From the NCBI GenBank assembly GCA_963700145.1, contig OY969474.1, positions 2,464,001-2,528,000 on the forward strand: a stretch of 64,000 nt of DNA, read 5' to 3'. Position numbers and translations under genes: made by a program. A model generated the notes under the pieces. That model made no database searches, had not been told where the DNA came from, and worked only from the letters and a program-made list of their open reading frames with translations. Positions 1 to 16,212 of the stretch are shown piece by piece. The DNA comes from an uncultured Acidobacteriota bacterium (GTDB lineage Bacteria > Acidobacteriota > Thermoanaerobaculia > Multivoradales > UBA5704). Numbering within the stretch: the first letter of the stretch is position 1; every line of letters begins with the position of its first letter.

Positions 1-43
1 TGCGGCTCCTCGGCGGCGAGCCCCAGCACCTGCCTCCGGTTCA

Positions 44-1948
44 TCATGGCTCGCGCTCCTCCTCCTGGTCCTCCTGGAAGCTCGAGGCGGCGGGCCGCGA
101 CTCGAGGTGCGGCGGCGCCGCTTCGGTGCCGTAGACCGCCGAGGCCGGCCGCGAGCCCACGAAGCCCTGGCCGGGCTCGACGATGTCCCAGCGCACCATC
201 ATCGAGTGGTCCTCGTGCACCACGTTGTGGCAGTGCATGACGTACTTGCCGAGGAAGTCGGTCCAGCGCATCACCACCTTGATCTCGTCGCCGGGCAGCA
301 GCGTCGCCACGTCGCGCCGCTTGCCGCCCATGAAGCGCTTGATCGGCTTGGGCTTGGGCCCGCCGTCGAAGTAAGGGACGTGGACCTCCTCCCCCTCGTG
401 CCAGTCCTGCACCCAGCTGCGGTCGAAGGGCACGCCGTTGACCTCGAGGATCAGGAACTCGGTGAAGTGGCTGTGGATGGGGTGCGACCAGGAGTTGCCG
501 CCGTTGCGGAAGATCCACACCTCCGCCGTCCCCTGCTCGATGCCGGCGTCGATGCGGTTGGGGTCGAAGACCTTGCCGTTGACCGTCCACAGGCCGCCGT
601 CGTAGTCGAACTCCCACACCCGCTCGCGGCGGATCTCGCCCGGGTCGATGCGCGGCCACTCGCGGAGCTTGTCGGGGATGCGGCTGGGGTCGGGGCCGGT
701 GGCCTCGACGACCCGGAACTGGATGAGCGGATCGCCGGGGTCGAGCATGCGCCCCGAGGGGCCCTTGCCGTTGGTCTGTTCGAGGCGGTTGACGATCTCC
801 ACCCTGTCCCCGACCCGGTACTTCGAGAAGTCGAGGATGACGTCGACGCGCTGGGCGACCGAGAGGAAGATGCTCTCGGCTTCCAGCGGCCGCGGCAGGA
901 TGTTGCCGTCGCCGCTGATGACGGTGAAGGGACGGCCGTTCGAGAGGAAGATCTGGTAGAAGCGCGACGGCCCGCCGTTCAGGATGCGGAAGCGGTACTT
1001 GCGCCGCTCGACCTCGAAGTGAGGCTGGATGCGGCGGTTGACGGTGTAGCGGTCGCCCAGGATGCCGTCGGTGTTGAACGGGTTCCAGCGCACCTGGCCG
1101 TTCGCGTCGAACATCACGTCGTGGAGGATCAACGGCACGTCGTACTTGCCGCTCGGCAGGCCCCAGGCGGGTGGCGGGTCGTTCTCGTTGCCGGTGTCCT
1201 GCTCGTCGAAGAGGCAGTAGAAGCCGTCGAGCCCGGCGTAGACGTTGGCGGCGGTGAAGTCCAGGCGGTGGTCGTGGTACCAGAGGGTGGTGAGCTTCTC
1301 GCGCGGGTCGAAGTTGGACGGGAAGTTGGGGTAGTGGTGGTCCCAGAACTCGCCGGTGTCGATCCAGTCCTGCGGCGAGCCGTCGCTCTCAGAAGCGGTG
1401 TGGCCGTTGTGCAGGTGGCTGGTCGTCGAGGGCAGCGCGAAGGTGGCCTTGCTCACGCCGACCGGCGGCAGGTCGTTGTAGCGCCGCACCAGGATCGGCT
1501 CGCCGTAGCGTGCGTGGTAGGTGGGGCCGGGGGTCGAGCCGTTGAAGCCCCACGACCCGCTGCCGGTTTTCCACGGCGGGCCGTCGGTGGCCCACGTCGG
1601 GCTGCCGTCGCCGTAGGGCGGGTCCGGGTGGTAGGACCAGACGAACTCCTGCTCGTGGATCTCGTAGAGCTTCTGCGGCGGGAACTCCGCGTAGCGCTGG
1701 TGGGCGCGCGGATCGGGCGGCGGGTCGAGCTTCGCGACCGGCTGCATGATCGGCGGCACGAAGAGCGGTGCCTTGAAGGGCGTCGCCGGCGGGCTCGGGG
1801 TGGCGAGGTCGGGCGGCTCGCCGTCGGGCGGGCAGAGGAACTTGAGCAGATCGCTCGGGTCGGCGGCCGCGGCGCGCCGGGCGAGGAGCCCGGAACCGCC
1901 GGCCACCAACCCGAGCTTGAGGACCTCCCTCCGTCGGATCATCGTCAC
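44..1948 (-). CDS. Multicopper oxidase (CotA/bilirubin oxidase-like), Tat-exported
   Basis: RRREVLK twin-arginine signal; Cu motifs HLHNG, WYHDH, HPIHSH, HCHNVVHEDHSMM. Confidence 0.93.
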   Translation of the reverse strand: MTMIRRREVLKLGLVAGGSGLLARRAAAADPSDLLKFLCPPDGEPPDLATPSPPATPFKAPLFVPPIMQPVAKLDPPPDPRAHQRYAEFPPQKLYEIHEQEFVWSYHPDPPYGDGSPTWATDGPPWKTGSGSWGFNGSTPGPTYHARYGEPILVRRYNDLPPVGVSKATFALPSTTSHLHNGHTASESDGSPQDWIDTGEFWDHHYPNFPSNFDPREKLTTLWYHDHRLDFTAANVYAGLDGFYCLFDEQDTGNENDPPPAWGLPSGKYDVPLILHDVMFDANGQVRWNPFNTDGILGDRYTVNRRIQPHFEVERRKYRFRILNGGPSRFYQIFLSNGRPFTVISGDGNILPRPLEAESIFLSVAQRVDVILDFSKYRVGDRVEIVNRLEQTNGKGPSGRMLDPGDPLIQFRVVEATGPDPSRIPDKLREWPRIDPGEIRRERVWEFDYDGGLWTVNGKVFDPNRIDAGIEQGTAEVWIFRNGGNSWSHPIHSHFTEFLILEVNGVPFDRSWVQDWHEGEEVHVPYFDGGPKPKPIKRFMGGKRRDVATLLPGDEIKVVMRWTDFLGKYVMHCHNVVHEDHSMMVRWDIVEPGQGFVGSRPASAVYGTEAAPPHLESRPAASSFQEDQEEEREP

Positions 1949-5205: not shown

Positions 5206-5688
5206 CTAGGGAGCGCTCTCGCTCCGCTCGGGGACCGGCGGGCCGGCCGCGGCCCTCTCCTCCGACTGGCGCTCGATCGGCTCTTCGACGAAGCCGGAGC
5301 GGTCGTCGGCGAGGCGCCAGCTCCGCACCTCGGAGGGCTTGCCGTCGGTCACCGCCACGATCAGGTACGACACCCCCGGCCAGGCGTTCTCGCGGTCGAA
5401 CTCGCTCGGCTGCGCCGGGTGGTCGGGGTGCGAGTGGTAGTAGCCGACGATCTCGAGTCCCGCCTCGCGCGCCGCGCGCTGCGCCGCGAGCACCGTCTCC
5501 GGGCCGATGACGAAGCGGTTGGCGCGGCTCTCCTCCCGCTCGTTGTCGGCCGGCACGATCCGCTGCACCAGCAGACGCTCGCCCTCGGCCTTGCCGAGGA
5601 GGATGCCGCAGCACTCCTCGGGGTAGGCCGCGGCGGCGTGCCGCTCGATGGCGGCCAGGTCGGAAGGCACGAGGACGAGGGCGGTCAT
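5206..5688 (-). CDS. mec: JAB/MPN+ (Mov34, M67) metallopeptidase, Mec-like
   Basis: YPEECCG and YHSHPDHPAQPSEFD JAMM motif; ATG overlaps cysM stop (ATGA). Confidence 0.9.
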   Translation of the reverse strand: MTALVLVPSDLAAIERHAAAAYPEECCGILLGKAEGERLLVQRIVPADNEREESRANRFVIGPETVLAAQRAAREAGLEIVGYYHSHPDHPAQPSEFDRENAWPGVSYLIVAVTDGKPSEVRSWRLADDRSGFVEEPIERQSEERAAAGPPVPERSESAP

Positions 5689-6671
5689 GACGGGCTCGCG
5701 GGCTCCTCCCAGAAGCGCTCGGACAGGTACTTGTCGGCGCCGTCGCAGAGGACCGTGACCAGCGTAGCACCCTCGCCGCCGCCGTCTTCTCCGTCGGCGG
5801 CGAGCCGCGCCGCCAGGCGGAGCGCCGCCGCCACGTTGGCGCCCGACGAGATCCCGGCCAGCACGCCGGCCTCGCGCGCCAGCCGGCGCACCATGGCGTG
5901 CGCCTCCTCGGTCGTCACCTCCCAGGCCTCGTCGGCCAGCGCCGGGTCGTAGATCGGCGGCACGATGGCCGAGGCCATGTGCTTCATCCCCTCGAGGCCG
6001 TGGAAGGCGCTGTCGGGTTCGACCGAGATCAGTCGCACGCCGGGCGCCCGCTCGCGGAGACACCGCCCCACCCCCATGAACGTGCCGCTGGTCCCCAGGC
6101 CGGCGATGAAGTGAGTGAGGCGGCCGCCGGTCTGCGCCCAGATCTCGGGGCCGGTCGAGCGGTAGTGGGCGCCCCAGTTCTCGGGGTTGGAGTACTGGTC
6201 GAGGTAGGCGTAGCGCGCGGGGTCGGCGGCGGCCAGGCGGCGGGCCTCGAGGATGGCGCCGTCGCTGCCGGTCAGCGGGTCGGTGAGGAGCAGCTCGACG
6301 CCGTAGGCGGCGAGGATGCGCTTCCGTTCCGGGCTGGCGTTGGCCGGCAGGCAGAGGGTCACCGGGATGCCGAGCGCGGCACCGATCATGGCGTAGGCGA
6401 TCCCCGTGTTGCCGGAGGTGGAGTCGAGGAGGCGGCGCGGGGCGCCCGGCGCGAGGAGCCCGCGGCGGACCGCGTCCTCGACCATGGCGAGCGCCGGGCG
6501 GTCCTTGACCGAGCCGCCGGGGTTGGCGAGCTCGGCCTTGGCGTAGAGGCGGACGCGCGGCGTCCCGGTCAGCTGCGAGAGGTCGAGGAGCGGGGTGCGG
6601 CCGATGAGGTCGAGCAGCCGGCGCGGCCCGTGGCCACCGGCGGGCGAGGTCTCGTCCTCAACCTGCGTCAT
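5685..6671 (-). CDS. cysM: PLP-dependent cysteine synthase (CysM-like)
   Basis: NPGGSVKDR, STSGNTG, GLGTSGT, GISSGAN motifs; start taken at ATG 6671. Confidence 0.9.
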   Translation of the reverse strand: MTQVEDETSPAGGHGPRRLLDLIGRTPLLDLSQLTGTPRVRLYAKAELANPGGSVKDRPALAMVEDAVRRGLLAPGAPRRLLDSTSGNTGIAYAMIGAALGIPVTLCLPANASPERKRILAAYGVELLLTDPLTGSDGAILEARRLAAADPARYAYLDQYSNPENWGAHYRSTGPEIWAQTGGRLTHFIAGLGTSGTFMGVGRCLRERAPGVRLISVEPDSAFHGLEGMKHMASAIVPPIYDPALADEAWEVTTEEAHAMVRRLAREAGVLAGISSGANVAAALRLAARLAADGEDGGGEGATLVTVLCDGADKYLSERFWEEPASPS

Positions 6672-6873
6672 CGAGAAGAGAGGAACCGGAGAGAGGGAGC
6701 TTCCACCTCCCAAGCTAACAGAGGTCGGCCCGAAGGGCAAGTGACTCGGGGGCCCACCGCCAATTGCCTGGCCGCCCGCGCAGGAAATGTGCGCCCTCTA
6801 CGCATGTTCAAATATCGAGACCCATCTTCTCTTCTTTTAGTGTACGATGATTCTTTCACCTAAAGGAGCCGCT

Positions 6874-7983
6874 ATGACCAAGTCGCGTTTGGTGCAGGCG
6901 CTTGCCGTCGTCCTGTTCTCCGCAACTGGAATCAGTGCCCAAGAGGTTCAGTTCACGCAACGATCGTTAGAGCGGATCGAGGGGAGCTTGCCCGAGAATG
7001 GAGTCGAGTTCTCATCGGTGCTGAAGCTGCCGGCACTTGCGGTCGTTGAGGTTCGACTCCCCACCGGGACGCTCGTTCGCGCCGAGATCGACTACGTGTC
7101 AGGGGATGTATTGGTGCAGAGCCTTGCGGGCGAGTCCGATGAACTGGTGCCTCTCGACTCCGACGATCCTTCCCTACTCGCGGCGCTGCTCGATGCCGTG
7201 GGTGATCCTCTGAGCCCGCGCGAGGAGACGCTGGCTCGCATGCTCGCCTTCGTCACAGCCTACCCATCGGGTGCCGTGATCGATGTCAACTCTGCCAGTG
7301 TGAAACAGGGACCGCGCGAGAAGGTAGTTAGCTCCCTCTGTGCGACTACCGGAAGCCAGCGTTCGGGCACCTTCGATGTCGGGACGAAGACCTATCGCCA
7401 GACGGCAAAGCTTGGACCCTGCTATAACCGCCAAAATCAGTGCATGGGGCGCTGTGGTCCTGGATGCAACGCGCCACCGAACCCCACGTTCCAGGTTTTT
7501 ACGCAGGACTGCCTGAACCATGATCTTTGTACCCTCAAGACCGGAACGATCTTCGGTGAATGCACGGACGAATGGCACGCTGCCGCCGACGATTTCCTGA
7601 GGGGGCGGGATTGCGGCGATCTCGATGGTACTTGGAAGGACAACTTCAATTACGTCTGGAAGCTGGTCCAGGGGCCCATTATCACAGGTACCGTTCAGGG
7701 AGCCGGTAGGGAGGCTCACTGCCGGCCTTGGAATGTCTCAGGGCTCCACACTGGAGACGACGTCTCCCTGGATGGCAACCGGCTCTTTCAGAAGGAGGGC
7801 TGCTGCCGGGCTTTTTCACTCAAGGGCGACATCACGACCTGCAGCAAAGCGAGCGGGACGTGGACAAATGTCTGCAGGGGAAGCGGAACGTGGACTCTGT
7901 CGCGCCAGGGCACCAGTGCCAAGCTTCAGTTCTTTGGGGACGACGGCGAGCCAAGCGCCGGCCCAGGGGCAGTGGAGGAATAG
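6874..7983 (+). CDS. Secreted Cys-rich hypothetical protein with a phospholipase A2-like motif; lower-GC insertion
   Basis: AAGGAG RBS, signal peptide, CMGRCGPGC..DCLNHDLC motif; less GC-biased codons than neighbours. Confidence 0.7.
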   Translation: MTKSRLVQALAVVLFSATGISAQEVQFTQRSLERIEGSLPENGVEFSSVLKLPALAVVEVRLPTGTLVRAEIDYVSGDVLVQSLAGESDELVPLDSDDPSLLAALLDAVGDPLSPREETLARMLAFVTAYPSGAVIDVNSASVKQGPREKVVSSLCATTGSQRSGTFDVGTKTYRQTAKLGPCYNRQNQCMGRCGPGCNAPPNPTFQVFTQDCLNHDLCTLKTGTIFGECTDEWHAAADDFLRGRDCGDLDGTWKDNFNYVWKLVQGPIITGTVQGAGREAHCRPWNVSGLHTGDDVSLDGNRLFQKEGCCRAFSLKGDITTCSKASGTWTNVCRGSGTWTLSRQGTSAKLQFFGDDGEPSAGPGAVEE

Positions 7984-7999
7984 CAGCGCGAAGAACGGC

Positions 8000-8500
8000 T
8001 CAGCCCGTCTTCTTCTCGCCCAGCTCGATCAGCGTCTCCGGCCGCGGCAGCGGCGCCACCAGCGCGGCCTCGACCGCCTCCTCCTCGAGCCCCTGCCGGT
8101 CGGAGGAGAGCCGCCAGGCGCGCGTCTCCACGACCTGCCCGGCCGAGATCGCGGTGAGCAGGTAGCTCATGCCCGGGCGCAGCGTCTCGAGCTCCAGCTC
8201 GCTCGGCGTCGCCGTCCCGCCGGCGCGCGCCAGGTAGTAGCCGACGACCTCCATCCCCAGCGACTGCGCCTCGTGCGCCGCGGCGGCGTGGGTCTCGGCC
8301 GGCACCGGGTCGGCGCCCTGACCTTCGCCGCCGCCGTCGGCCGGCTGCACCGCCAGGATCCGCTCGACGAAGATCTTCTCCAGGCCGTTGCGGTGCGGTC
8401 TGCCGATGAGGACGCCGCAGCACTCGCCGGGGTACGTCATGGCGGCGTGGCGCCCGATGGCGTGGAGGTGAGTGGGCGAGATCACGAGATGGCAGTTCAT
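8000..8500 (-). CDS. Catalytically degenerate JAB/MPN paralog
   Basis: YPGECCGVLIG retained, but YYLARAGGTATPSELE replaces YHSHP..PS..D; otherwise colinear with 5206..5688. Confidence 0.75.
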   Translation of the reverse strand: MNCHLVISPTHLHAIGRHAAMTYPGECCGVLIGRPHRNGLEKIFVERILAVQPADGGGEGQGADPVPAETHAAAAHEAQSLGMEVVGYYLARAGGTATPSELELETLRPGMSYLLTAISAGQVVETRAWRLSSDRQGLEEEAVEAALVAPLPRPETLIELGEKKTG

Positions 8501-8616
8501 ACCCGGTTGCAACCCCTCTCTCGGAGCGTCGTGGCCGGTCGGGCCACGCGATTACGCGTCGCCCCGGCCGCACTGCAAGAGCAGGGCCAGAGGCGTTTTC
8601 CTCTATCCTGCGCGGC

Positions 8617-9273
8617 ATGGACGACAGCGTCCGCACCGGGGGCGAGCGGGTGCCGCCCGGCCAGTACGTCACCGAGAAGTGGCCGGTCCTCACCTACGGC
8701 CCGGAGCCGCACGTCGATCCAAGCGAGTGGACGCTGCGCCTCTCCGGCCTGGTCGAGGAGGAGCTGGCGTGGAGGTGGGAGGAGTTCCAAGCGCTGCCGC
8801 GGGTGCGCGTCACGGCGGACTTCCACTGCGTCACCCGCTTCTCCACCCTCGACAACGCCTGGGAGGGTGTCGCCACCCGCGAGCTGCTGCGCCGGGCGCG
8901 CGTGCGGCCCGAGGCATCGCACGTCCTCGTCCACTGCCACGGCGGCTACACCACCAACCTCCCGCTCGAGGACTTCCTCTCCGAGCGCGCGCTGGTGGCC
9001 GACACCTGGCGCGGCCAGCCGCTAGCGGTCGAGCACGGCGGCCCGGCGCGGCTCGTCGTCCCCCACCTCTACGCCTGGAAGAGCGCCAAGTGGGTCAGCG
9101 GCTTCGAGCTCCTCGACGCCGACCGCCGCGGCTTCTGGGAGGAGAACGGCTACCACACCTACGGCGACCCCTGGCGCGAGGAGCGCTTCAGCTTCCAGGA
9201 AGTCAAAGAGGCCTACCAGGTCCGGCGGCGGGCGAAGGAGCTGGGGTTGGTGCCGGGCCGACCTCCTCAATGA
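8617..9273 (+). CDS. Sulfite oxidase-like molybdopterin oxidoreductase
   Basis: PPGQY, DFHCVTRFS, EHGGPARLVVP, WKSAKW, GFWEENGYH motifs. Confidence 0.9.
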   Translation: MDDSVRTGGERVPPGQYVTEKWPVLTYGPEPHVDPSEWTLRLSGLVEEELAWRWEEFQALPRVRVTADFHCVTRFSTLDNAWEGVATRELLRRARVRPEASHVLVHCHGGYTTNLPLEDFLSERALVADTWRGQPLAVEHGGPARLVVPHLYAWKSAKWVSGFELLDADRRGFWEENGYHTYGDPWREERFSFQEVKEAYQVRRRAKELGLVPGRPPQ

Positions 9274-9484
9274 CGTCGCTCTCCGCCGGCGCGAGGGTGA
9301 TCGTCAGCGGCCGGCCCACGGCCGCGGCTTCCTTCAAGAGGCGCAAGGACACCTCGAAGGACGGGCGTGCTCTCGGCAGGCGGTAGAAGCGGGCCGACTC
9401 GTAGAACATGACCTCGACGTGATCCGCCCCCGGCGGCTCGCGAACGTGAGCCACCGTCATCTCGCGCCGACTCATCCGCTCCAT
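9203..9484 (-). CDS. Small protein resembling the pro-domain of protein-glutaminase
   Basis: ATG one base after the glutaminase stop; VEVMFYESARFYRL..LLKEAAAVGRPLTITL pattern parallels the upstream gene's N-terminus. Confidence 0.6.
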   Translation of the reverse strand: MERMSRREMTVAHVREPPGADHVEVMFYESARFYRLPRARPSFEVSLRLLKEAAAVGRPLTITLAPAESDVIEEVGPAPTPAPSPAAGPGRPL

Positions 9485-9485
9485 C

Positions 9486-10442
9486 CTACGGGCAGGTGAC
9501 CCCGTTCTTGTACCCGATCAGCGTGCCGTTCGTCGCCGTGTACGACGGATCCGTGGTGAACGTCGTGGTCGAGCCGAAGGCCGGCGTGTAGGCCGAGCCC
9601 GACTGGATCGAGTACTTCGACACTCTGGCGTGCGGATGGCAGGCGGGGTTCTCCTGCGCGGCCAGCCAACTGGTCAGCAGCACCGGCTTGTCGAACATGC
9701 CGGGATCGATGACCATCGCCAGCTCGGCGCTGATGCCCAGCTTTCTGATGTTGATGCGCACCCGCACGAGGGGGGCGACGTGGTACCACCAGGTCACGCA
9801 GCAGCCGCCCCATTTGTTCGCCTGCACCGAGAGCCGGTCGAGGTTGTCGACGGCAAAGCTGAACACCTTCTCGCAGCAGTAGCCGTACTGGGTGGTGATG
9901 ATCCGGCGCATCTCGTGAGCGCGCGCGTAGCAACCGTCGATCACGTACTGGAACGGGATGCAGTTCGGCACGCCGAACGGCCCCGGCAGGTGGCACGACT
10001 GTTGAGCGCAGAAGTCGAAGATCGCCTTGGCCGTCGCGTAGTTCGGGACGACGCGCTTGCAGAGCAGGAAGACCGGGATCTTCAGATAGTGCTCGACGAT
10101 GTTGAAGGTCATCGGATCGATCTTCGAGAGGTCGATGTCATAGATCTTCTCGGGTTTCTCGACGTAGGTCCGGCGGCGTTGGAACTCCTCCAGCTCCTCG
10201 CCGCGGAGGACGTCGATACGCCCGATGAAGCCCCGCCCCTCGTCGAGCTGGGCCTTCACCGGAGCGCCCTTCTCGAAGGCCTCCCCGAGCCGGGCCGCCG
10301 AGGCCTCGGCGGTCCTGGCGGTGGCCGACCGGAAGGTGTAGATCCGCTGCTTCTCGTTGAAGAGATACTCGGTCTCCTGCTCGCCCCTGCCCCGGCGAAT
10401 GGCGGCGATCGTCAGGAACTCCTCGCGCGGTTCCCTGGTCAT
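9486..10442 (-). CDS. Protein-glutamine glutaminase (protein deamidase) family with pro-domain
   Basis: CIPFQYVIDGCYARAHEM, CCVTWWYHVAP and VIDP match the Chryseobacterium protein-glutaminase Cys-His-Asp motifs; no clear signal peptide. Confidence 0.85.
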   Translation of the reverse strand: MTREPREEFLTIAAIRRGRGEQETEYLFNEKQRIYTFRSATARTAEASAARLGEAFEKGAPVKAQLDEGRGFIGRIDVLRGEELEEFQRRRTYVEKPEKIYDIDLSKIDPMTFNIVEHYLKIPVFLLCKRVVPNYATAKAIFDFCAQQSCHLPGPFGVPNCIPFQYVIDGCYARAHEMRRIITTQYGYCCEKVFSFAVDNLDRLSVQANKWGGCCVTWWYHVAPLVRVRINIRKLGISAELAMVIDPGMFDKPVLLTSWLAAQENPACHPHARVSKYSIQSGSAYTPAFGSTTTFTTDPSYTATNGTLIGYKNGVTCP

Positions 10443-10640
10443 CTCGAGCCTCCTCTTGCCATGATCCTATGGCGTCCGGACGGCAGGCTGCGTTACGCAC
10501 GCTCAGCCGCTTGACCAGGTGACCACTCTCCTAGGGTTTCGGGCACGACAGGCTCCTTTCGTTCGTTGGGAATTGAGGGTGCGACGCTCCGCAACGCCCG
10601 CCGAGCGGCGGCGACCGGCCGCCGCGCGGCGCCCAATGAC

Positions 10641-10940
10641 CTCCGGGAGGCGTGGAACTGCCTGCGGCGGCTTCGGAACCCTTTCCCGGAGCGTGGGAAT
10701 GGGTTGCGCGGGCCGGGGAACAGGTTGCGGAGCGCCGGGAACCTATTCCGAGCGGCTCGGAGGAGGTTCCGCAGCGCGCGCAACCCGTTCCCGGCGTCGC
10801 GCAATCGATTCCCGGCGCCGCGCAGGAGGTTCCGGAGGGCGCGCAGGAGGTTCCGAGGTCCCGGGAGGACATTGGGAGGCTCCACCGGGGCGTCTGGAGG
10901 TCGCGCGGGGACATTCCGGGGCTTCCGGCGGGCGTTACGC
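10641..10940. repeat. Degenerate 21-bp tandem array (~14 units)
   Basis: Units in register from 10683, e.g. ttcccggagcgtgggaatggg / ttgcgcgggccggggaacagg / ttcccggcgccgcgcaggagg / ttccggagggcgcgcaggagg. Confidence 0.75.
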
Positions 10941-11009
10941 CACCTTCTCCAGGGCCGCGGCGAGCTCCAGCTCCGGTGTAGGCTAGCCAAACAGGCAGGA
11001 GCCTGAACT

Positions 11010-11276
11010 ATGGAGATTTCCTTCCAAGTCCCCGATTCCGTCGCCGATCGGCTGAGAGCGTCGTGGCAGGACCTTCCCCGCCACGCGCTGGAGGCTCTCG
11101 CGGCCGACGCTTACCGGCAGGGCCTCCTGACGTCGGCCGAGGTGCAGGAGGTTCTCGGGATCGCTTCCCGACACGAGCTCGACGGCTTTCTCAAGCGGGC
11201 TGGAGCGTTCCTCCAATACACCGCCCAAGACCTCGAGGAGGACGTCCGGCGCTTCCGCGAAACGACCGCTCGGTGA
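11010..11276 (+). CDS. UPF0175-family putative antitoxin
   Basis: 88 aa; ALEALAADAYRQGLLTSAEVQEVLGIASRHELDGFLK..Y..DLEED pattern; AGGAG RBS. Confidence 0.8.
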   Translation: MEISFQVPDSVADRLRASWQDLPRHALEALAADAYRQGLLTSAEVQEVLGIASRHELDGFLKRAGAFLQYTAQDLEEDVRRFRETTAR

Positions 11277-11340
11277 TCGCGGCCTTCCGACACCTCACTC
11301 CGCAGCTCGACTCTCATCCTGCGTGGCTTCATCGGAGCAG
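11273..11340 (+). pseudogene. 5' remnant of a DUF3368/PIN-type toxin
   Basis: GTGA overlap with antitoxin stop; reads VIAA-(frameshift)-SDTSLRSSTLILRG, like the MIVVSDTSPL.YLILIG start of UPF0175 partners. Confidence 0.45.
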
Positions 11341-11392
11341 CGCGCCGGACACCAGTTCTCTGCCAGCCGCGTCTGCTTCGTTGAGAGCCACG

Positions 11393-12190
11393 ATGCCACC
11401 GACCCGTCACGACCGCCTCGTCCATGGCGTCCTGGTCTTCATCCTCGCCTGCGCCGCCGGACTCGCCGGCGGCATTGCCGCGCCGCTCGCCGGCGCGGAG
11501 GTGGCGCCGGCCGCCGTCGAGGTGCGCGGCACCGTCGTCGGGCCCGGCGGCGAGCCGGCGGCGGGGGCGGTGGTCGCCGTCGTCGCCACGCGGCGCAGCG
11601 AGCCGTCGGCGGTGGTGGTCGCCGGCGCCGACGGGGGGTTCGCGGCGACGGTCCCCGCCGGCACCTACGCTTTGACCGCCACTCACCCCCAGTGGGCGGC
11701 CGCCTACTCGCCGCCGGCGGAGGCGAGCGGCAAGGTGGTGCGCGACCTGCGCCTCCTGGCGCCGGCCGAGGGGGTTCTCCTCGAAGGCGGCGTCCGCGAC
11801 TCGACGGGGGCCGCCCTCGCCGGCGCGGAGGTGCACTGCATGCGCACCATCTCCCAGGGCGACCTCTTCGTCGGCCGTGCCGACGGCGCCGGACGCTACG
11901 CGCTGCGCCTGCCCTCCTCGCCCTACTACGGCTGCCACGCGGCGGCCGACGGGCTGCGCTCGCCGCTCGTCGAGATCGACGTCGCCGCCGGCGGGGTGCG
12001 GCAGCGGCAGGACTTGGTGATCCGCCGGCCGGCGCCCGCGCCGCAGGCGGTGGTCGACTGGATCCGCGCTCAGGCGATCCCGCTGCTGATGACGCGCGCC
12101 GGGCCGCTGCAACACCACCAACTGCTAGTCGTCTGTCCATCCCCACGAGTGAGGAGGCTCACATGGTCGACCTCGATGCCCCCGCAGTAG
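11393..12190 (+). pseudogene. Truncated duplicate of the esterase 5' half (signal peptide plus two carboxypeptidase-regulatory-like domains)
   Basis: 11409..12104 near-identical to 21386..22075; homology stops before the esterase domain. Confidence 0.8.
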
Positions 12191-13386
12191 CCTTCGTTGC
12201 GCAGCAGCTCCTGGACGTCGTGAGGTCCGGCCGGGTCAGCACGCCGGCGCCCGTGCCGGAGTCGACGGGACTGGAGTCAGGGCTGGAGTTGGGAAAGCTG
12301 GAATCGGCGACGCCGAAGCCCAGCGGCCCGAAGCCGCCCGCCGAGCGAGTCGCGCTCCTCGTGGATGCCATCCAGCGCGGCCGGCAAACCGCGAGGCCGG
12401 AGGACCGACCTGACCCGGACCTGGCGGCGGAGGTCATCAAGGGTGCCCGCTCCGGGCTCGCCAAGGCGCAGGAGTCGAACCCGATGCTCACCCGGCGCGA
12501 GGAGGTCGGCCTCGAGGCCGTCATCCTCACCGACGGCACACGGCCGAGCCTCACCGTACGCGACGGGTTCGTCGACCTCCAGGCGCCCGACATCGGCGAC
12601 TGGGGCATCGCCCTACGGCACTTCGAAGACCCGATCCGCCGGCTGATCGCCTCCGTCGGTCGCGTCAACGTACCGGTCGGTCAGGGTTTCGTGGGCACCT
12701 GTTTCGTCGTCGCCGGCGATCTCGTGGCGACCAATCGACACGTGCTCGAGGAGATCGCCACCGAGGACCCCGAGGGCACCTGGACGCTCAAGTTCCCCGG
12801 CCGAACCACCGTCGATTTCATCGGCGAGGACGGTGCTGCGAGCGCCACGCGGATTCCGGTGAAGGGCGTCGTGTTTGCCGGGCTCAACCCCATCAACCGT
12901 CAGGTCCACTTTCCCAACCTAGACCTTGCCCTGTTGCGGGTGGACGCGAGCCGAGTCGCCGACTTCCCTTCAGCCGTCCAGCTCGAGAAGGACCTCGCAC
13001 CGCTGGGGCCGTCCCGCGAACTCTACGCTGTCGGCTTCCCGGCGCGTCCCCAGACCCACTTCGGTACCTCCACGCCGCCGCCGGGGACCGAGACCGTGGA
13101 GGTGATGAGCTCGGTCTTCGGTTGGAAGTTCGGCATCAAGAAGCTGGCGCCCGGCGCCGCGGTGGCCGTCCCCGGACAGCTGCCGACGGACACGAAGAAA
13201 TGGGTCTTCACACACAACGCCTCGACCCTCGGCGGCAACTCGGGCTCCTGCGTTGTCGACCTCGGCATCGATGGCGGACGCGTCATCGGAATCCACTTCG
13301 CCGGCGAGTCCAGGGCGCAGAATTGGGCGCACTCCTTTGCGGCCGTGAAGGGGAGTATCAATAGCTTCGGGCTAACGTATGTGTAG
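12163..13386 (+). CDS. Trypsin-like serine protease (intact triad)
   Basis: GGAGG RBS; ATNRHV, LDLALL, STLGGNSGS; N-terminal LEAVIL..RPSL motif. Confidence 0.87.
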   Translation: MVDLDAPAVAFVAQQLLDVVRSGRVSTPAPVPESTGLESGLELGKLESATPKPSGPKPPAERVALLVDAIQRGRQTARPEDRPDPDLAAEVIKGARSGLAKAQESNPMLTRREEVGLEAVILTDGTRPSLTVRDGFVDLQAPDIGDWGIALRHFEDPIRRLIASVGRVNVPVGQGFVGTCFVVAGDLVATNRHVLEEIATEDPEGTWTLKFPGRTTVDFIGEDGAASATRIPVKGVVFAGLNPINRQVHFPNLDLALLRVDASRVADFPSAVQLEKDLAPLGPSRELYAVGFPARPQTHFGTSTPPPGTETVEVMSSVFGWKFGIKKLAPGAAVAVPGQLPTDTKKWVFTHNASTLGGNSGSCVVDLGIDGGRVIGIHFAGESRAQNWAHSFAAVKGSINSFGLTYV

Positions 13387-13470: not shown

Positions 13471-16212
13471 TCAGCGGGGTGGACGGTGGGCGGCTGTAAT
13501 GTCCAGCCCCACGTGATCGCGCAGCAGCTGGGCCAGGCGGCCGGGTTGGTGCCCGAACTGCCGCGTCAGCAGCTCCACCAGCTCCGGCACTCTCGACGTT
13601 CCGAGGCCTGCCGCGCTCAGCCACTCGCGGATGGCGTGTTGGTCCATAGGACCCAGGCGGAGGCGAGTGACCCGCTTGAACTCCCGATCGGCAAGCTGGG
13701 CAAACTGTAGGTCGCGGGCCGCGAGCACGACGGTGAAGCTTCCGGCGGCCCAGCTGCTACGGGTCAGAAGCGGCAGGAACAACGACCTCAGCCAGTCCAC
13801 CACCCCTGCCGGCGCTTCGTCCAAGCCGTCAAAGAATAGCACCGCTCCGTCTGCGCCTTCTGCTAGCTGGTGGACCAGCTCGAACGTCAAGAGATAGTCG
13901 TTTGCCTCGTTACTCTCTCGCAGATCGACATTGAGACCTACCGCAATTGCTCGCACGGCGTCGAAGACGTTCGTCCCTTCCAGACGCACCCAGCAATACG
14001 GCACTTCGCGGTCATCGCAGAGACGAGTGAAATGGCGCAGCAGGGTGGTCTTCCCAATACCTGCGTCTCCCTCGATCGCGAGCACCTGCAATCCTTTGCC
14101 ATCCAACATCTTCAAGAAGACACCAACCTCAGCTTCACGATCCAGAAAGATCTCTTCTGAGCGAAGCGACGGCGCCGAACGCGACATGAACTCATGAGGC
14201 GAATCGAAGCGGCCGATCTCGTAGTCCAGGCCCTCGTTCGCGGCGCCGGCGTCGACCGCAAAGTAGCCTTCGTGCCGGTCTCCCCACCGGTCCTCCATTT
14301 CGCTCATCCTGGCTGACGAGGCGAGGTGCGTGGCGACCAGGGCAGATGCATCGTTGCGATACAGACCGATGAGGACCTCGTCCTCGCGCAGCTCTCGCGT
14401 GAGGTCGTTGAACGTGCGACCGTGAAGCCGCCGACCGGTCTCCCGTATCCGCTCCGGCGGATTGAAGAAGTTCGATACGGCCCGAGTTCGTGGCGATGCG
14501 GGCTCGCTCAGCATGGGATCTTCGAAAACCCCCGCGCCGGCCAACAGTGGACGATCGACGTGCGACCAGAGCGCAATCGCCGCTCCCAACTTCAGGCCCC
14601 GCGGACCTGGACGGTAGACGCCCCCGTAGTGCACGCCCAAGACCTCGCCGGTCTCCAGGTCGACCACCGGCGCGCCGCCGGTCCCGCCTGTCGTGAAGCA
14701 GTTGTGAGTTAGCTGGTCGCCCTCTACCGGACCGCCGAAGCGTTCCGGCGCCAGGCCCTGCGCGGACATCGGGGTCGATTCAACGGCTACGATTTCCCCG
14801 AGGAGCAGACGGAGGATCCCCAACTCCCCTTCCATCACTCGCGCCAGGACGATCGGATCGATTCTGCTGTCCAACATCGGGTAGCCGAGGAGGTAGACCT
14901 TGCGACCCACCAAGTCCGCGGGTCGTCGTGTGGTGGCACGCAGCGGCCGGACCAGGCTTGTTGCTTGATCTCCTACCTCCAGCACGGCCACGCCACTGCC
15001 ATCAATGGCCGCGTTCGTGACCTCGAAGCGAGGCCTTCCGGCCTCTACTTCCATGAGTTCCTCGCTTTCAACACTTTCTGTGGGCCCCTCCGCCGGCCAC
15101 TGGTTATGTCCGACCGCGAGCTCTACGAAGACCCGGAGCTCGGGCTTCAGCTGCCACTTTCCCTCGTTATCCGCCACCAGGATGGGTCCCACGGTCGGCC
15201 AATGCGTCAGCACCACCGATCTTCCCACGAAGAAGCCAGGGCCGGACCATCGGGTCTTGCCCTCCCCCACGATCCTGAGCAGGCAAACGGCCTGGGCTGT
15301 GCTCGCGATCTGGGCTCGGTGCTGCTCGAGCACCCGCCATTCCGGCGGTGCTGGCCCGAAACTCCTCCCGCTCCACATCGGTAGTGCCGGCGTCATGCGG
15401 AGCCAGTACTCCTGGATCGCGCTGGCGAGCGCCGCCGTCTCGGGGTGATCCCCGGCGGCGGCCTCTAGCACGGCCGGTACTTGGTTGACGACCCAAGCCG
15501 TCTCCAGCACCCGTTGCCAGCGCGCTGCGGGCTGCCTCTCCGCCGCCAAGCCCGCCACGTCGACGCCGGCCTTCTTGGCGATTCGCCGCGTGGCAGCGGC
15601 GGTCGGGTAGAGGCTCACCAAGGCATCCCGCAGCTCGGCGAGCGCGGGTATCTGGTCCGCCAGAAACACCGTACTTGTCTCGGCTTCCTTGACCGCGGCG
15701 GCGCGGCCCGCGAGGTCCCGCCGCATGGCGACGAACCAGCGTTCGGCCATAGGCGCCGGCCCCTCGCCACGCTCGGTTCGAGCGAGCCAGCTCTCCGCCC
15801 GCTGTGGGTCGATGAAGCTCAGTGCCGTCAGCTGCTGGGCCTCGGCGAGACCTGGACGCTCCTGCCATGGCGCGCCGCGCTCGCCGTACTCCCAGAGCAA
15901 CCGAGCCACGTCCCGCACCCTGGCGAGGGTGTACTCCTTGACCAACCGTTGTAACAGCACGTCGCGAAGGTCGGGATCCATGACGTAGAGACCATCGTCG
16001 ACCTCGGAGCAGAGCGGCGAGAGGAGGAGCTGCGCCTCCGCGGTATAAGGGAGGACGACGGGCGGATCGAGGAAGTAGTTGATGCGCAGCAGATGCACCA
16101 GGTCCGGGTTCAGCACGACCGGCAGCGCGGCGTGGCAGGCGAGCATCACTAGCTCCTCTCCACGCTGGTGCGCGAAGACGTTCAGCCGAGCCTCGGCTTC
16201 TTCCCGGCTCAA
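13471..16212 (-). CDS. Multidomain effector of MoxR-vWA system: vWA-associated helical domain, EAD1-like domain, inactive trypsin, unknown domain and STAND/AAA ATPase
   Basis: LACHAALPVVLNPDL..LLLSPLC N-domain; LRDALVSLYP..W..VLE EAD-like segment; trypsin with GGTGGAP instead of GNSGSP; FLDREAE..GDAGIGKTT..FFDGLD. Confidence 0.75.
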   Translation of the reverse strand: MSREEAEARLNVFAHQRGEELVMLACHAALPVVLNPDLVHLLRINYFLDPPVVLPYTAEAQLLLSPLCSEVDDGLYVMDPDLRDVLLQRLVKEYTLARVRDVARLLWEYGERGAPWQERPGLAEAQQLTALSFIDPQRAESWLARTERGEGPAPMAERWFVAMRRDLAGRAAAVKEAETSTVFLADQIPALAELRDALVSLYPTAAATRRIAKKAGVDVAGLAAERQPAARWQRVLETAWVVNQVPAVLEAAAGDHPETAALASAIQEYWLRMTPALPMWSGRSFGPAPPEWRVLEQHRAQIASTAQAVCLLRIVGEGKTRWSGPGFFVGRSVVLTHWPTVGPILVADNEGKWQLKPELRVFVELAVGHNQWPAEGPTESVESEELMEVEAGRPRFEVTNAAIDGSGVAVLEVGDQATSLVRPLRATTRRPADLVGRKVYLLGYPMLDSRIDPIVLARVMEGELGILRLLLGEIVAVESTPMSAQGLAPERFGGPVEGDQLTHNCFTTGGTGGAPVVDLETGEVLGVHYGGVYRPGPRGLKLGAAIALWSHVDRPLLAGAGVFEDPMLSEPASPRTRAVSNFFNPPERIRETGRRLHGRTFNDLTRELREDEVLIGLYRNDASALVATHLASSARMSEMEDRWGDRHEGYFAVDAGAANEGLDYEIGRFDSPHEFMSRSAPSLRSEEIFLDREAEVGVFLKMLDGKGLQVLAIEGDAGIGKTTLLRHFTRLCDDREVPYCWVRLEGTNVFDAVRAIAVGLNVDLRESNEANDYLLTFELVHQLAEGADGAVLFFDGLDEAPAGVVDWLRSLFLPLLTRSSWAAGSFTVVLAARDLQFAQLADREFKRVTRLRLGPMDQHAIREWLSAAGLGTSRVPELVELLTRQFGHQPGRLAQLLRDHVGLDITAAHRPPR

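Follow-up and report, generated by a model that had tools for sequence, protein, structure and literature searches.

We analysed two adjacent genes on the reverse strand of a 64,000-nucleotide stretch of DNA from an uncultured Acidobacteriota bacterium of soil (contig OY969474.1, positions 2,464,001 to 2,528,000; the whole stretch is called the window, and coordinates are counted from its first base). The upstream gene (9486..10442, -; stop codon at 9486-9488) encodes a 318-amino-acid (aa) protein resembling pro-protein-glutaminase, as judged from the list of open reading frames (ORFs), the Pfam family PF18626 and a structural model. The downstream gene (9203..9484, -), taken from the same ORF list, encodes a 93-aa protein that was recognized by hhalign as a stand-alone paralogue of the pro-domain of the enzyme. 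Both ORFs lie exactly where a preliminary description of the window had placed them. Reading of the codons put the ATG of the small gene one base past the TAG of the enzyme gene; an alternative in-frame ATG lies at 9475 behind a GGAG, translation from it would yield 90 aa, and the closest homologues (P0001-P0003) begin at this point. At their 3' ends, the small gene and a convergent molybdopterin-oxidoreductase gene (8617..9273, +) overlap by 71 bases (9203-9273). This part of the small gene encodes a lineage-specific Pro/Ala-rich tail (residues 78-93; 9206..9253, -), which is missing in most homologues and was modelled with a predicted local distance difference test (pLDDT) score of about 60. 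Promoter and terminator scans of positions 8900-11100 found nothing. The genome, a single contig of 5.46 Mb, carries one copy of each gene.

The larger protein scored 80.2 bits against PF18626 (Gln_deamidase_2; residues 139-262; cut-off 25), which places it in this family, and aligned with the sequence of the structurally solved Chryseobacterium protein-glutaminase (PG) over residues 130-300 (E = 3e-22). The preliminary description had called it a PG, and both searches bear this out. Against the NCBIfam equivalog NF040782 it scored 100.1 bits, with the match confined to residues 130-317. As 250 bits are needed, the protein is, by sequence, a member of the PG family and not an orthologue of the food enzyme. 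It is a predicted deamidase. In the alignment, residues Cys171 (9930-9932), His221 (9780-9782) and Asp246 (9705-9707) occupy the positions of the Chryseobacterium catalytic residues, Cys156, His197 and Asp217 (numbering from PMC4214742). This Cys-His-Asp triad was kept in 120 of 120 homologues, and also in all 60 sequences of a second set.

An AlphaFold2 model of the enzyme, built from a 60-sequence alignment, had a pLDDT of 92.7 and a predicted template modelling (pTM) score of 0.91. The full-length model superposed on Chryseobacterium proteolyticum pro-PG (3A56_B) from residues 2..318 to 19..287 (Z = 28.9, root-mean-square deviation (rmsd) 3.1, 265 residues aligned) and matched Flavobacterium PG (8Z3I) with a Z of 27.8, while residues 128..318 superposed on mature PG (2ZK9) with a Z of 23.2 and an rmsd of 1.7 over 172 aligned residues. 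Foldseek matched the model to PG structures with E values of 6e-22 to 1e-13 (2ZK9, 1e-13). The Chryseobacterium enzyme (pro-PG 3A56, its A47Q mutant 3A54 and the mature form 2ZK9) and Flavobacterium PG (8Z3I) have the same two-domain build, in which a pro-region of the oligonucleotide/oligosaccharide-binding (OB) type precedes a Cys-His-Asp domain. Since the model superposes on the whole pro-enzyme, beyond its mature part, the first 90 residues (10173..10442, -) are predicted to form an OB-type barrel docked on the catalytic domain in the place of the zymogen pro-region. This domain, delimited from the model and from a profile alignment of residues 20-89 with pro-PG residues 35-103, comprises strands 7-16, 25-28 and 34-37, a helix at 43-58, strands 62-67 and 72-78, and a helix at 81-90. 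The mature Chryseobacterium enzyme begins at about residue 128-130 of the present protein in the alignments, and homologue alignment and model together assign residues 91-129 (10056..10172, -) to a linker and residues 130-318 (9489..10055, -) to the catalytic domain. The N-terminus is charged and leads directly into strand 1 at residue 7, which argues that the enzyme has no signal peptide, in agreement with the preliminary description. The nearest fold outside the PGs for the catalytic domain was human NTAQ1 (Z about 7.4, Foldseek E about 6e-3), which PMC4214742 presents as a Gln deamidase of the cytoplasm that likewise uses Cys, His and Asp as its triad. NTAQ1 differs in having no pro-domain or partner, in its very low sequence identity to the enzyme, and in acting on N-terminal Gln only.

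The small protein matched the N-terminus of the enzyme in a direct BLASTP comparison (36% identity over 67 aa, E = 3e-4) and, more strongly, in an hhalign comparison of small-protein residues 2-80 with enzyme residues 3-81 (probability 97.8%, E = 1.1e-12, 78 columns). We assembled 57 species-level genome loci containing homologues of the enzyme (38-95% identity, many phyla), which also served as the sample for synteny. A hidden Markov model (HMM) made from 19 small proteins matched the enzyme at about residues 8-66 in 35 of these loci (domain E ≤ 0.01; best 4.4e-10). When a 60-sequence profile of the small family was compared with all PDB sequences, it matched residues 33-91 of 3A56 (E = 5e-5), the next and unrelated match having an E of 0.057. 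The likeness extended to structure. In the model of the small protein (pLDDT 81.8), strands and helix follow one another as they do in enzyme residues 7-78; 3A56_B ranked first in Foldseek (E = 3.4e-4, rmsd 1.7 over 76 columns) and in the VIA fold comparison (Z = 11.7, chain 19..114), and 3A56 and 3A54 were the best PDB matches. Other OB proteins followed closely, with a Z of about 10 for enterotoxin B subunits. The claim of homology to the pro-domain is therefore carried by the sequence evidence, fold alone not being decisive. Judged in this way, the small protein is a paralogue of the enzyme pro-domain and a homologue of the Chryseobacterium pro-region. The preliminary description had drawn both parallels and had proposed the comparison with the pro-enzyme structure, and both parallels hold.

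The small protein matched no Pfam, NCBIfam or PADLOC family, and the Protein Atlas gave only unnamed clusters of hypothetical proteins. An exhaustive profile search found 349 representative clusters (E ≤ 1e-3), of which 229 reached E ≤ 1e-10. Lengths of 54-128 aa were seen in 147 of the 150 best representatives, and none of the 150 was fused to another domain; a word-based search of proteins of 176-2000 aa, which is weak evidence, also returned no longer or fused forms. The exhaustive search did find three longer proteins among the best 150. One (P0199, 579 aa) contains six divergent tandem copies of the small-protein domain, and another (P0236, 215 aa) is lipoprotein-like with two copies; neither has a Pfam match. 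Arrays of this OB unit thus occur without a deamidase domain in the same chain. The third (P0260, 235 aa) is probably a gene-calling artefact in which the end of an enzyme gene was read out of frame.

A single position of the aligned stretch distinguishes wild-type pro-PG (3A56, FMLTAQFY) from its A47Q mutant (3A54, FMLTQQFY), and counting along the chain gives residue 47 for this position and 156 for the Cys. The Ala47 position aligns with Gln32 of the enzyme (codon 10347-10349), in the loop FNEKQRIY (residues 28-35; 10338..10361, -), and with Ala31 of the small protein (codon 9392-9394), in the loop FYESARFY (residues 27-34; 9383..9406, -). We refer to this element as the plug loop. Chryseobacterium pro-PG has Ala at this position, whereas the clade studied here has Gln or Glu: among 120 enzymes we counted 98 Gln, 18 Glu, two His, one Ala and one Pro, and among 60 more diverse enzymes 44 Gln, seven Ala, six Glu, two His and one Pro. 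The corresponding residue in 166 small proteins was Ala in 146, Pro in eight, Thr in four, Gln in three, Val in two, Glu in two and Ser in one, and a second count gave Ala in 57 of 60. Within the loop of the enzymes F28 and E30 are invariant. In the small family F27 and S30 are invariant and V25, E29, A31, Y34 and L36 nearly so, and seven of the ten invariant or near-invariant positions of the family fall in residues 25-36, around the plug loop. Hashizume et al., in 2011, reportedly found Ala47 of the zymogen directly over Cys156, and obtained an enzyme-substrate complex and an S-acyl intermediate from A47Q mutants. If so, the plug of the present enzymes naturally carries the substrate residue or its product, and the residue of the free copy is the inert one that a true inhibitor would have.

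The residue beside the plug position in the small protein is Arg in 153 of 166 sequences and Gln in only nine. With Ala at the plug position and Arg beside it, the small protein was rejected as a Gln substrate of the enzyme. It might instead be a substrate adaptor or an independent binder, which would present another ligand (protein, peptide, sugar or nucleic acid) to the enzyme or share a pathway with it. OB folds are general binding modules, the nearest folds outside the PGs being sugar-binding toxin B subunits, metal-binding SilF and DNA-binding RecO, and strict co-occurrence of two genes would fit any shared pathway. However, homology in sequence, beyond fold, ties the small protein specifically to PG pro-regions, the uniform size and absence of fusions among the best representatives are not what an adaptor would suggest, and the rarity of Gln beside the plug leaves no conserved Gln substrate. 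We therefore consider this role very improbable.

A match to the small-family HMM lay downstream of the enzyme and on the same strand in 55 of the 57 loci, in line with the linkage that the preliminary description had proposed to look for, and in 54 loci it started -10 to +216 nucleotides from the end of the enzyme match. The loci come from Acidobacteriota, Planctomycetota, Actinomycetota, Cyanobacteriota, Chlorobiota, Nitrospirota, anammox bacteria, Pseudomonadota, Bacteroidota and others. In a Pyrinomonadaceae locus (L016, 4937-7828) the small gene is 2893 nucleotides away with at least one other ORF in between, the only such case among the 57. Of the two loci that had no match, one (L008) is on a contig that stops at the enzyme gene, and the other (L054) has a divergent sub-threshold ORF in which the same pattern and a lipoprotein signal are visible by eye. 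In one further locus (L047) the small gene is present and broken across three frames, like its enzyme gene. An all-against-all BLAST of the ORFs in the 57 loci and the window was used to look for a third conserved gene; the largest other family, found in six loci, consisted of ABC-transporter ATPases, and the candidate was dropped.

Pairwise identities of enzyme and small protein were correlated across 49 loci (r = 0.71; none of 999 permutations as high), which reflects joint inheritance and is not evidence of binding. In the same 49 loci, pairs of catalytic domains were on average 65% identical, and the corresponding means for the cis pro-domain, the linker and the small protein were 36%, 36% and 37%. 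The equal rate at which the two paralogous OB domains have evolved is one reason for considering the small protein as an activator or folding helper, which would pair with the cis OB domain or compete for its site and so remove the plug, or would act as an intermolecular chaperone. The tandem arrays of six and two domains in P0199 and P0236 suggest that OB units can pack together, and pro-domains can serve as folding templates, as in subtilisin (PMC13763027). Nevertheless, conservation in the small protein is strongest in the loop aligned with the plug, which carries an inert Ala and for which an activator has no obvious need, and the enzyme has a pro-domain of its own to assist folding. On balance an activating or chaperoning role appears distinctly unlikely.

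Relatives of the enzyme form at least 1216 protein clusters at 90% identity (E ≤ 1e-3), and the best 120 are all 289-334 aa long. Among 301 sampled genomes of the same phylum, nine had matches at E ≤ 1e-10 and only three, counting the genome of the window, had a full-length match; identity between phyla is 55-80%. The two-gene unit is rare and patchily distributed, and has probably been transferred horizontally. None of 401 sampled genomes from the class of one exported Bacteroidota or deltaproteobacterial representative (L050) passed the NF040782 cut-off that marks classical secreted PGs, and five of them carry PG-like genes, all below this equivalog cut-off. A very distant PG-like gene (L065:723-2088, -) showed a weak small-family match (E = 7e-5) in an ORF overlapping its stop codon, and two other PG-like loci (L061 and L064) had no small-family match. 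The small partner may thus reach beyond the clade studied here.

N-terminal signal and lipoprotein peptides were judged by inspection and with a simple script, in place of a dedicated predictor. In 11 loci (L037, L041, L044, L046, L049-L054 and L057; Bacteroidota and two deltaproteobacterial bins) a hydrophobic stretch, mostly ending in a lipobox-like Cys, is present at the N-terminus of both proteins. In the other loci with readable N-termini neither protein has one. The enzyme of one locus (L056) is truncated by the contig end, and the small protein there has an N-terminal hydrophobic stretch; a stretch flagged in another locus (L021) looks like an out-of-frame artefact and was set aside. 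The plug residue of the exported enzymes was Ala in seven loci, Glu in two and Gln in one. Since the export signals are present or absent on both partners together, the two proteins most likely work in the same place.

The preliminary description had left two functions in view for the pair, one of the toxin-immunity type and the other a regulated modifier of proteins in the cell. In the first, the deamidase would harm the cell through an essential protein, the small protein would be its antidote, and the two genes would form a selfish addiction or conflict module. The order of enzyme and then small protein with a gap of one base, the autonomy of a unit that has no conserved neighbours, the patchy distribution (full-length in three of 301 genomes of the phylum, this one counted) and the identity of 55-80% between phyla despite that patchiness, which suggests horizontal transfer, would all suit such a module, as would an antitoxin-like UPF0175 gene and conflict genes with effector-associated domain 1 (EAD1), NACHT and trypsin-type domains beside the pair in the window. 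That neighbourhood is not common to the other loci, however, and a mean identity of 65% makes the catalytic domain very conserved for a toxin. In Pfam, PF18626 was the one match of the enzyme and the small protein had none, so that no delivery or secretion-marker domain was found, and no PADLOC model, in a library of systems described by 2023, matched either protein at E ≤ 1. The enzyme already has a block in cis, and the 11 pairs of exported lipoproteins are ill-suited to a cytoplasmic addiction module. We regard a toxin-antidote function as unlikely. A regulated modifier fits better, because the catalytic domain is conserved across phyla, no delivery domain is present and some lineages export the two partners together.

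We propose that the pair consists of an auto-inhibited deamidase and a trans-acting, non-reactive plug, comparable to SpeB and Spi, and hold this reading with about even confidence. Gene 1 would encode a PG-family protein-glutamine deamidase built like the inactive Chryseobacterium pro-enzyme, with its OB pro-domain predicted to sit on the catalytic domain and to place one loop over the Cys-His-Asp site. This plug, as Gln or in its deamidated form Glu, would resemble substrate or product. Gene 2 would supply a free copy of the OB domain, whose best-conserved loop has the unreactive Ala also seen in the Chryseobacterium pro-peptide. Once the pro-domain of the enzyme is displaced, the small protein would, we infer, dock in the same cleft in trans. 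It could then serve as a dedicated, tightly acting inhibitor, or safety cap, keeping protein deamidation in check where the pair sits, which would be the cytoplasm in this bacterium and the cell envelope where both partners carry lipoprotein signals. Indirect support for a trans-inhibitor comes from the match of the conserved loop to the Ala47 loop, from its Ala as against the Gln or Glu of the enzyme, and from the shared compartment.

Several points weigh against this proposal. The placement of Ala47 over the Cys and the A47Q enzyme-substrate complex are taken as reported for the Chryseobacterium pro-enzyme and from the titles of the PDB entries. The contrast between Gln and Ala is not absolute, with Ala in seven of the 60 more diverse enzymes and Gln in three of the 166 small proteins, and because the conserved loop belongs to the OB core of the small protein as well, its conservation could stem from folding and not from docking. 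The OB fold is common, and a Z of about 10 against 11.7 means that the fold by itself says little. In the model the cleft is already taken by the cis pro-domain, docked as in the zymogen, a point that the preliminary description does not raise and that makes one ask when a copy in trans would be needed, and the comparison of ORFs in the 57 loci found no protease or other partner conserved nearby that could release the cis pro-domain. A complex prediction for the full-length enzyme with the small protein, made with alignments for both, gave scores of 0.41, 0.16 and 0.00 (mark 0.32) and speaks neither for nor against the proposal, as the cis pro-domain of the query enzyme occupied the cleft. Of the pair of deamidase and trans-inhibitor put forward in the preliminary description, the structural half stands, a PG homologue being kept beside a pro-domain paralogue in nearly all loci, while the functional half has the standing of a proposal.

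The logic proposed here has precedents among bacterial cysteine proteases. PG itself is active only after removal of its propeptide (PMC13763027), and PMC2873492 describes inhibitor genes adjacent to and co-transcribed with those of SpeB and the staphopains, Spi being a propeptide analogue. As described there, SpeB of Streptococcus pyogenes is an enzyme with a pro-domain encoded beside a small, co-transcribed, pro-domain-like gene, which is the same arrangement and the same logic that we propose for the present pair; inhibition by Spi was measured according to that account, whereas for the small protein it is a proposal. In common with Spi, the small protein is a stand-alone homologue of the pro-domain, and its gene is adjacent and on the same strand, in the window after a gap of one base. 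SpeB and the enzyme of the window both belong to the papain-like or transglutaminase-like Cys-His class. The two pairs differ in that one enzyme is a protease and the other a putative deamidase, in the fold of the pro-domain, and in the secretion of SpeB. Staphopain with staphostatin, and Bfp with Bfi in Bacteroides fragilis, likewise have a protease gene followed by one for a specific, small, barrel-shaped inhibitor in a single transcript, and these adjacent inhibitors are thought to protect the producer (PMC2873492). Both Bfp and Bfi carry lipoprotein or export signals in that account, like the 11 exported pairs found here. Staphostatins are lipocalin-like and unrelated to the pro-peptide, whereas the small protein of the window is a true pro-domain paralogue.

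A variant of the auto-inhibited deamidase would operate as a switch that needs no protease. The Gln32 of the enzyme pro-domain, offered to Cys171, would be the natural counterpart of the engineered A47Q pro-enzyme; its self-deamidation to Glu, or a trapped thioester, would alter the plug, so that the pro-domain swings out and the enzyme is activated once. The free, Ala-bearing copy would then re-cap the opened enzyme, and an encoded Glu, as in 18 of 120 enzymes, would mark a variant locked in the fired state. Such a single-turnover timer with a reset inhibitor, directed at a conserved cellular target, is a speculation to which we attach little weight.

The genes surrounding the pair were annotated as well. 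On the side of the small gene, positions 5206-9273 contain a cysteine-synthase-like PALP gene, two JAB/MPN genes and the molybdopterin oxidoreductase, and the 378-aa product of a gene at 6847-7983 (+), which is rich in cysteines and begins with a signal-like sequence, had no Pfam family at E ≤ 0.1. On the other side, divergent from the enzyme gene, lies a gene (11010-11276, +) for an 88-aa member of the UPF0175 family, an antitoxin-like family (60.5 bits). The 570-base gap between the two contains a degenerate tandem array with a 21-base period and about 7-8 copies (10687-10863), which yields ORFs with a 7-residue period on both strands. These have no Pfam match, and the stretch is common to a close relative (L001); the array may be either a regulatory array or a small repeat protein. 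Further on are a 687-aa ORF (11323-13386, +) with a C-terminal trypsin-like peptidase domain and a gene (13471-16212, -) for a 913-aa protein combining Effector-associated domain 1, a trypsin-like peptidase and a NACHT/AAA ATPase. The last two look like conflict-system genes and are not found beside the pair in the other loci.

The enzyme family is known and annotated, and the small family is without a Pfam, NCBIfam or PADLOC model. We found no description of the pairing, of a clade that has no signal peptide, or of a natural Gln at the Ala47 position in the full-text literature searched, with subscription journals lying outside it. The sole paper found to name PF18626 reports type IVb secretion genes near some members, and its accessible part mentions no partner (PMC10318531). 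In the texts consulted, PGs figure only as secreted food-processing enzymes of Bacteroidota, and no natural role or substrate is named. The clade described here differs from Chryseobacterium PG as known in several respects. Chryseobacterium-type pre-pro-PG has a signal peptide, whereas the enzyme of the window and those of most of the 57 loci do not; the present clade has an obligatory free copy of the pro-domain downstream; and it occurs in many phyla, while classical PG is known only from Bacteroidota.

Our analysis thus describes a much larger clade of PGs, mostly without a signal peptide and nearly always with an unannotated small partner. If the partner inhibits, the use of a copied pro-peptide as an inhibitor would extend from cysteine proteases to a protein-modifying deamidase, and the small protein could be a specific off-switch for industrial protein-glutaminases. 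Inhibition by the partner would also suggest that glutamine is deamidated under regulation within bacterial cells.

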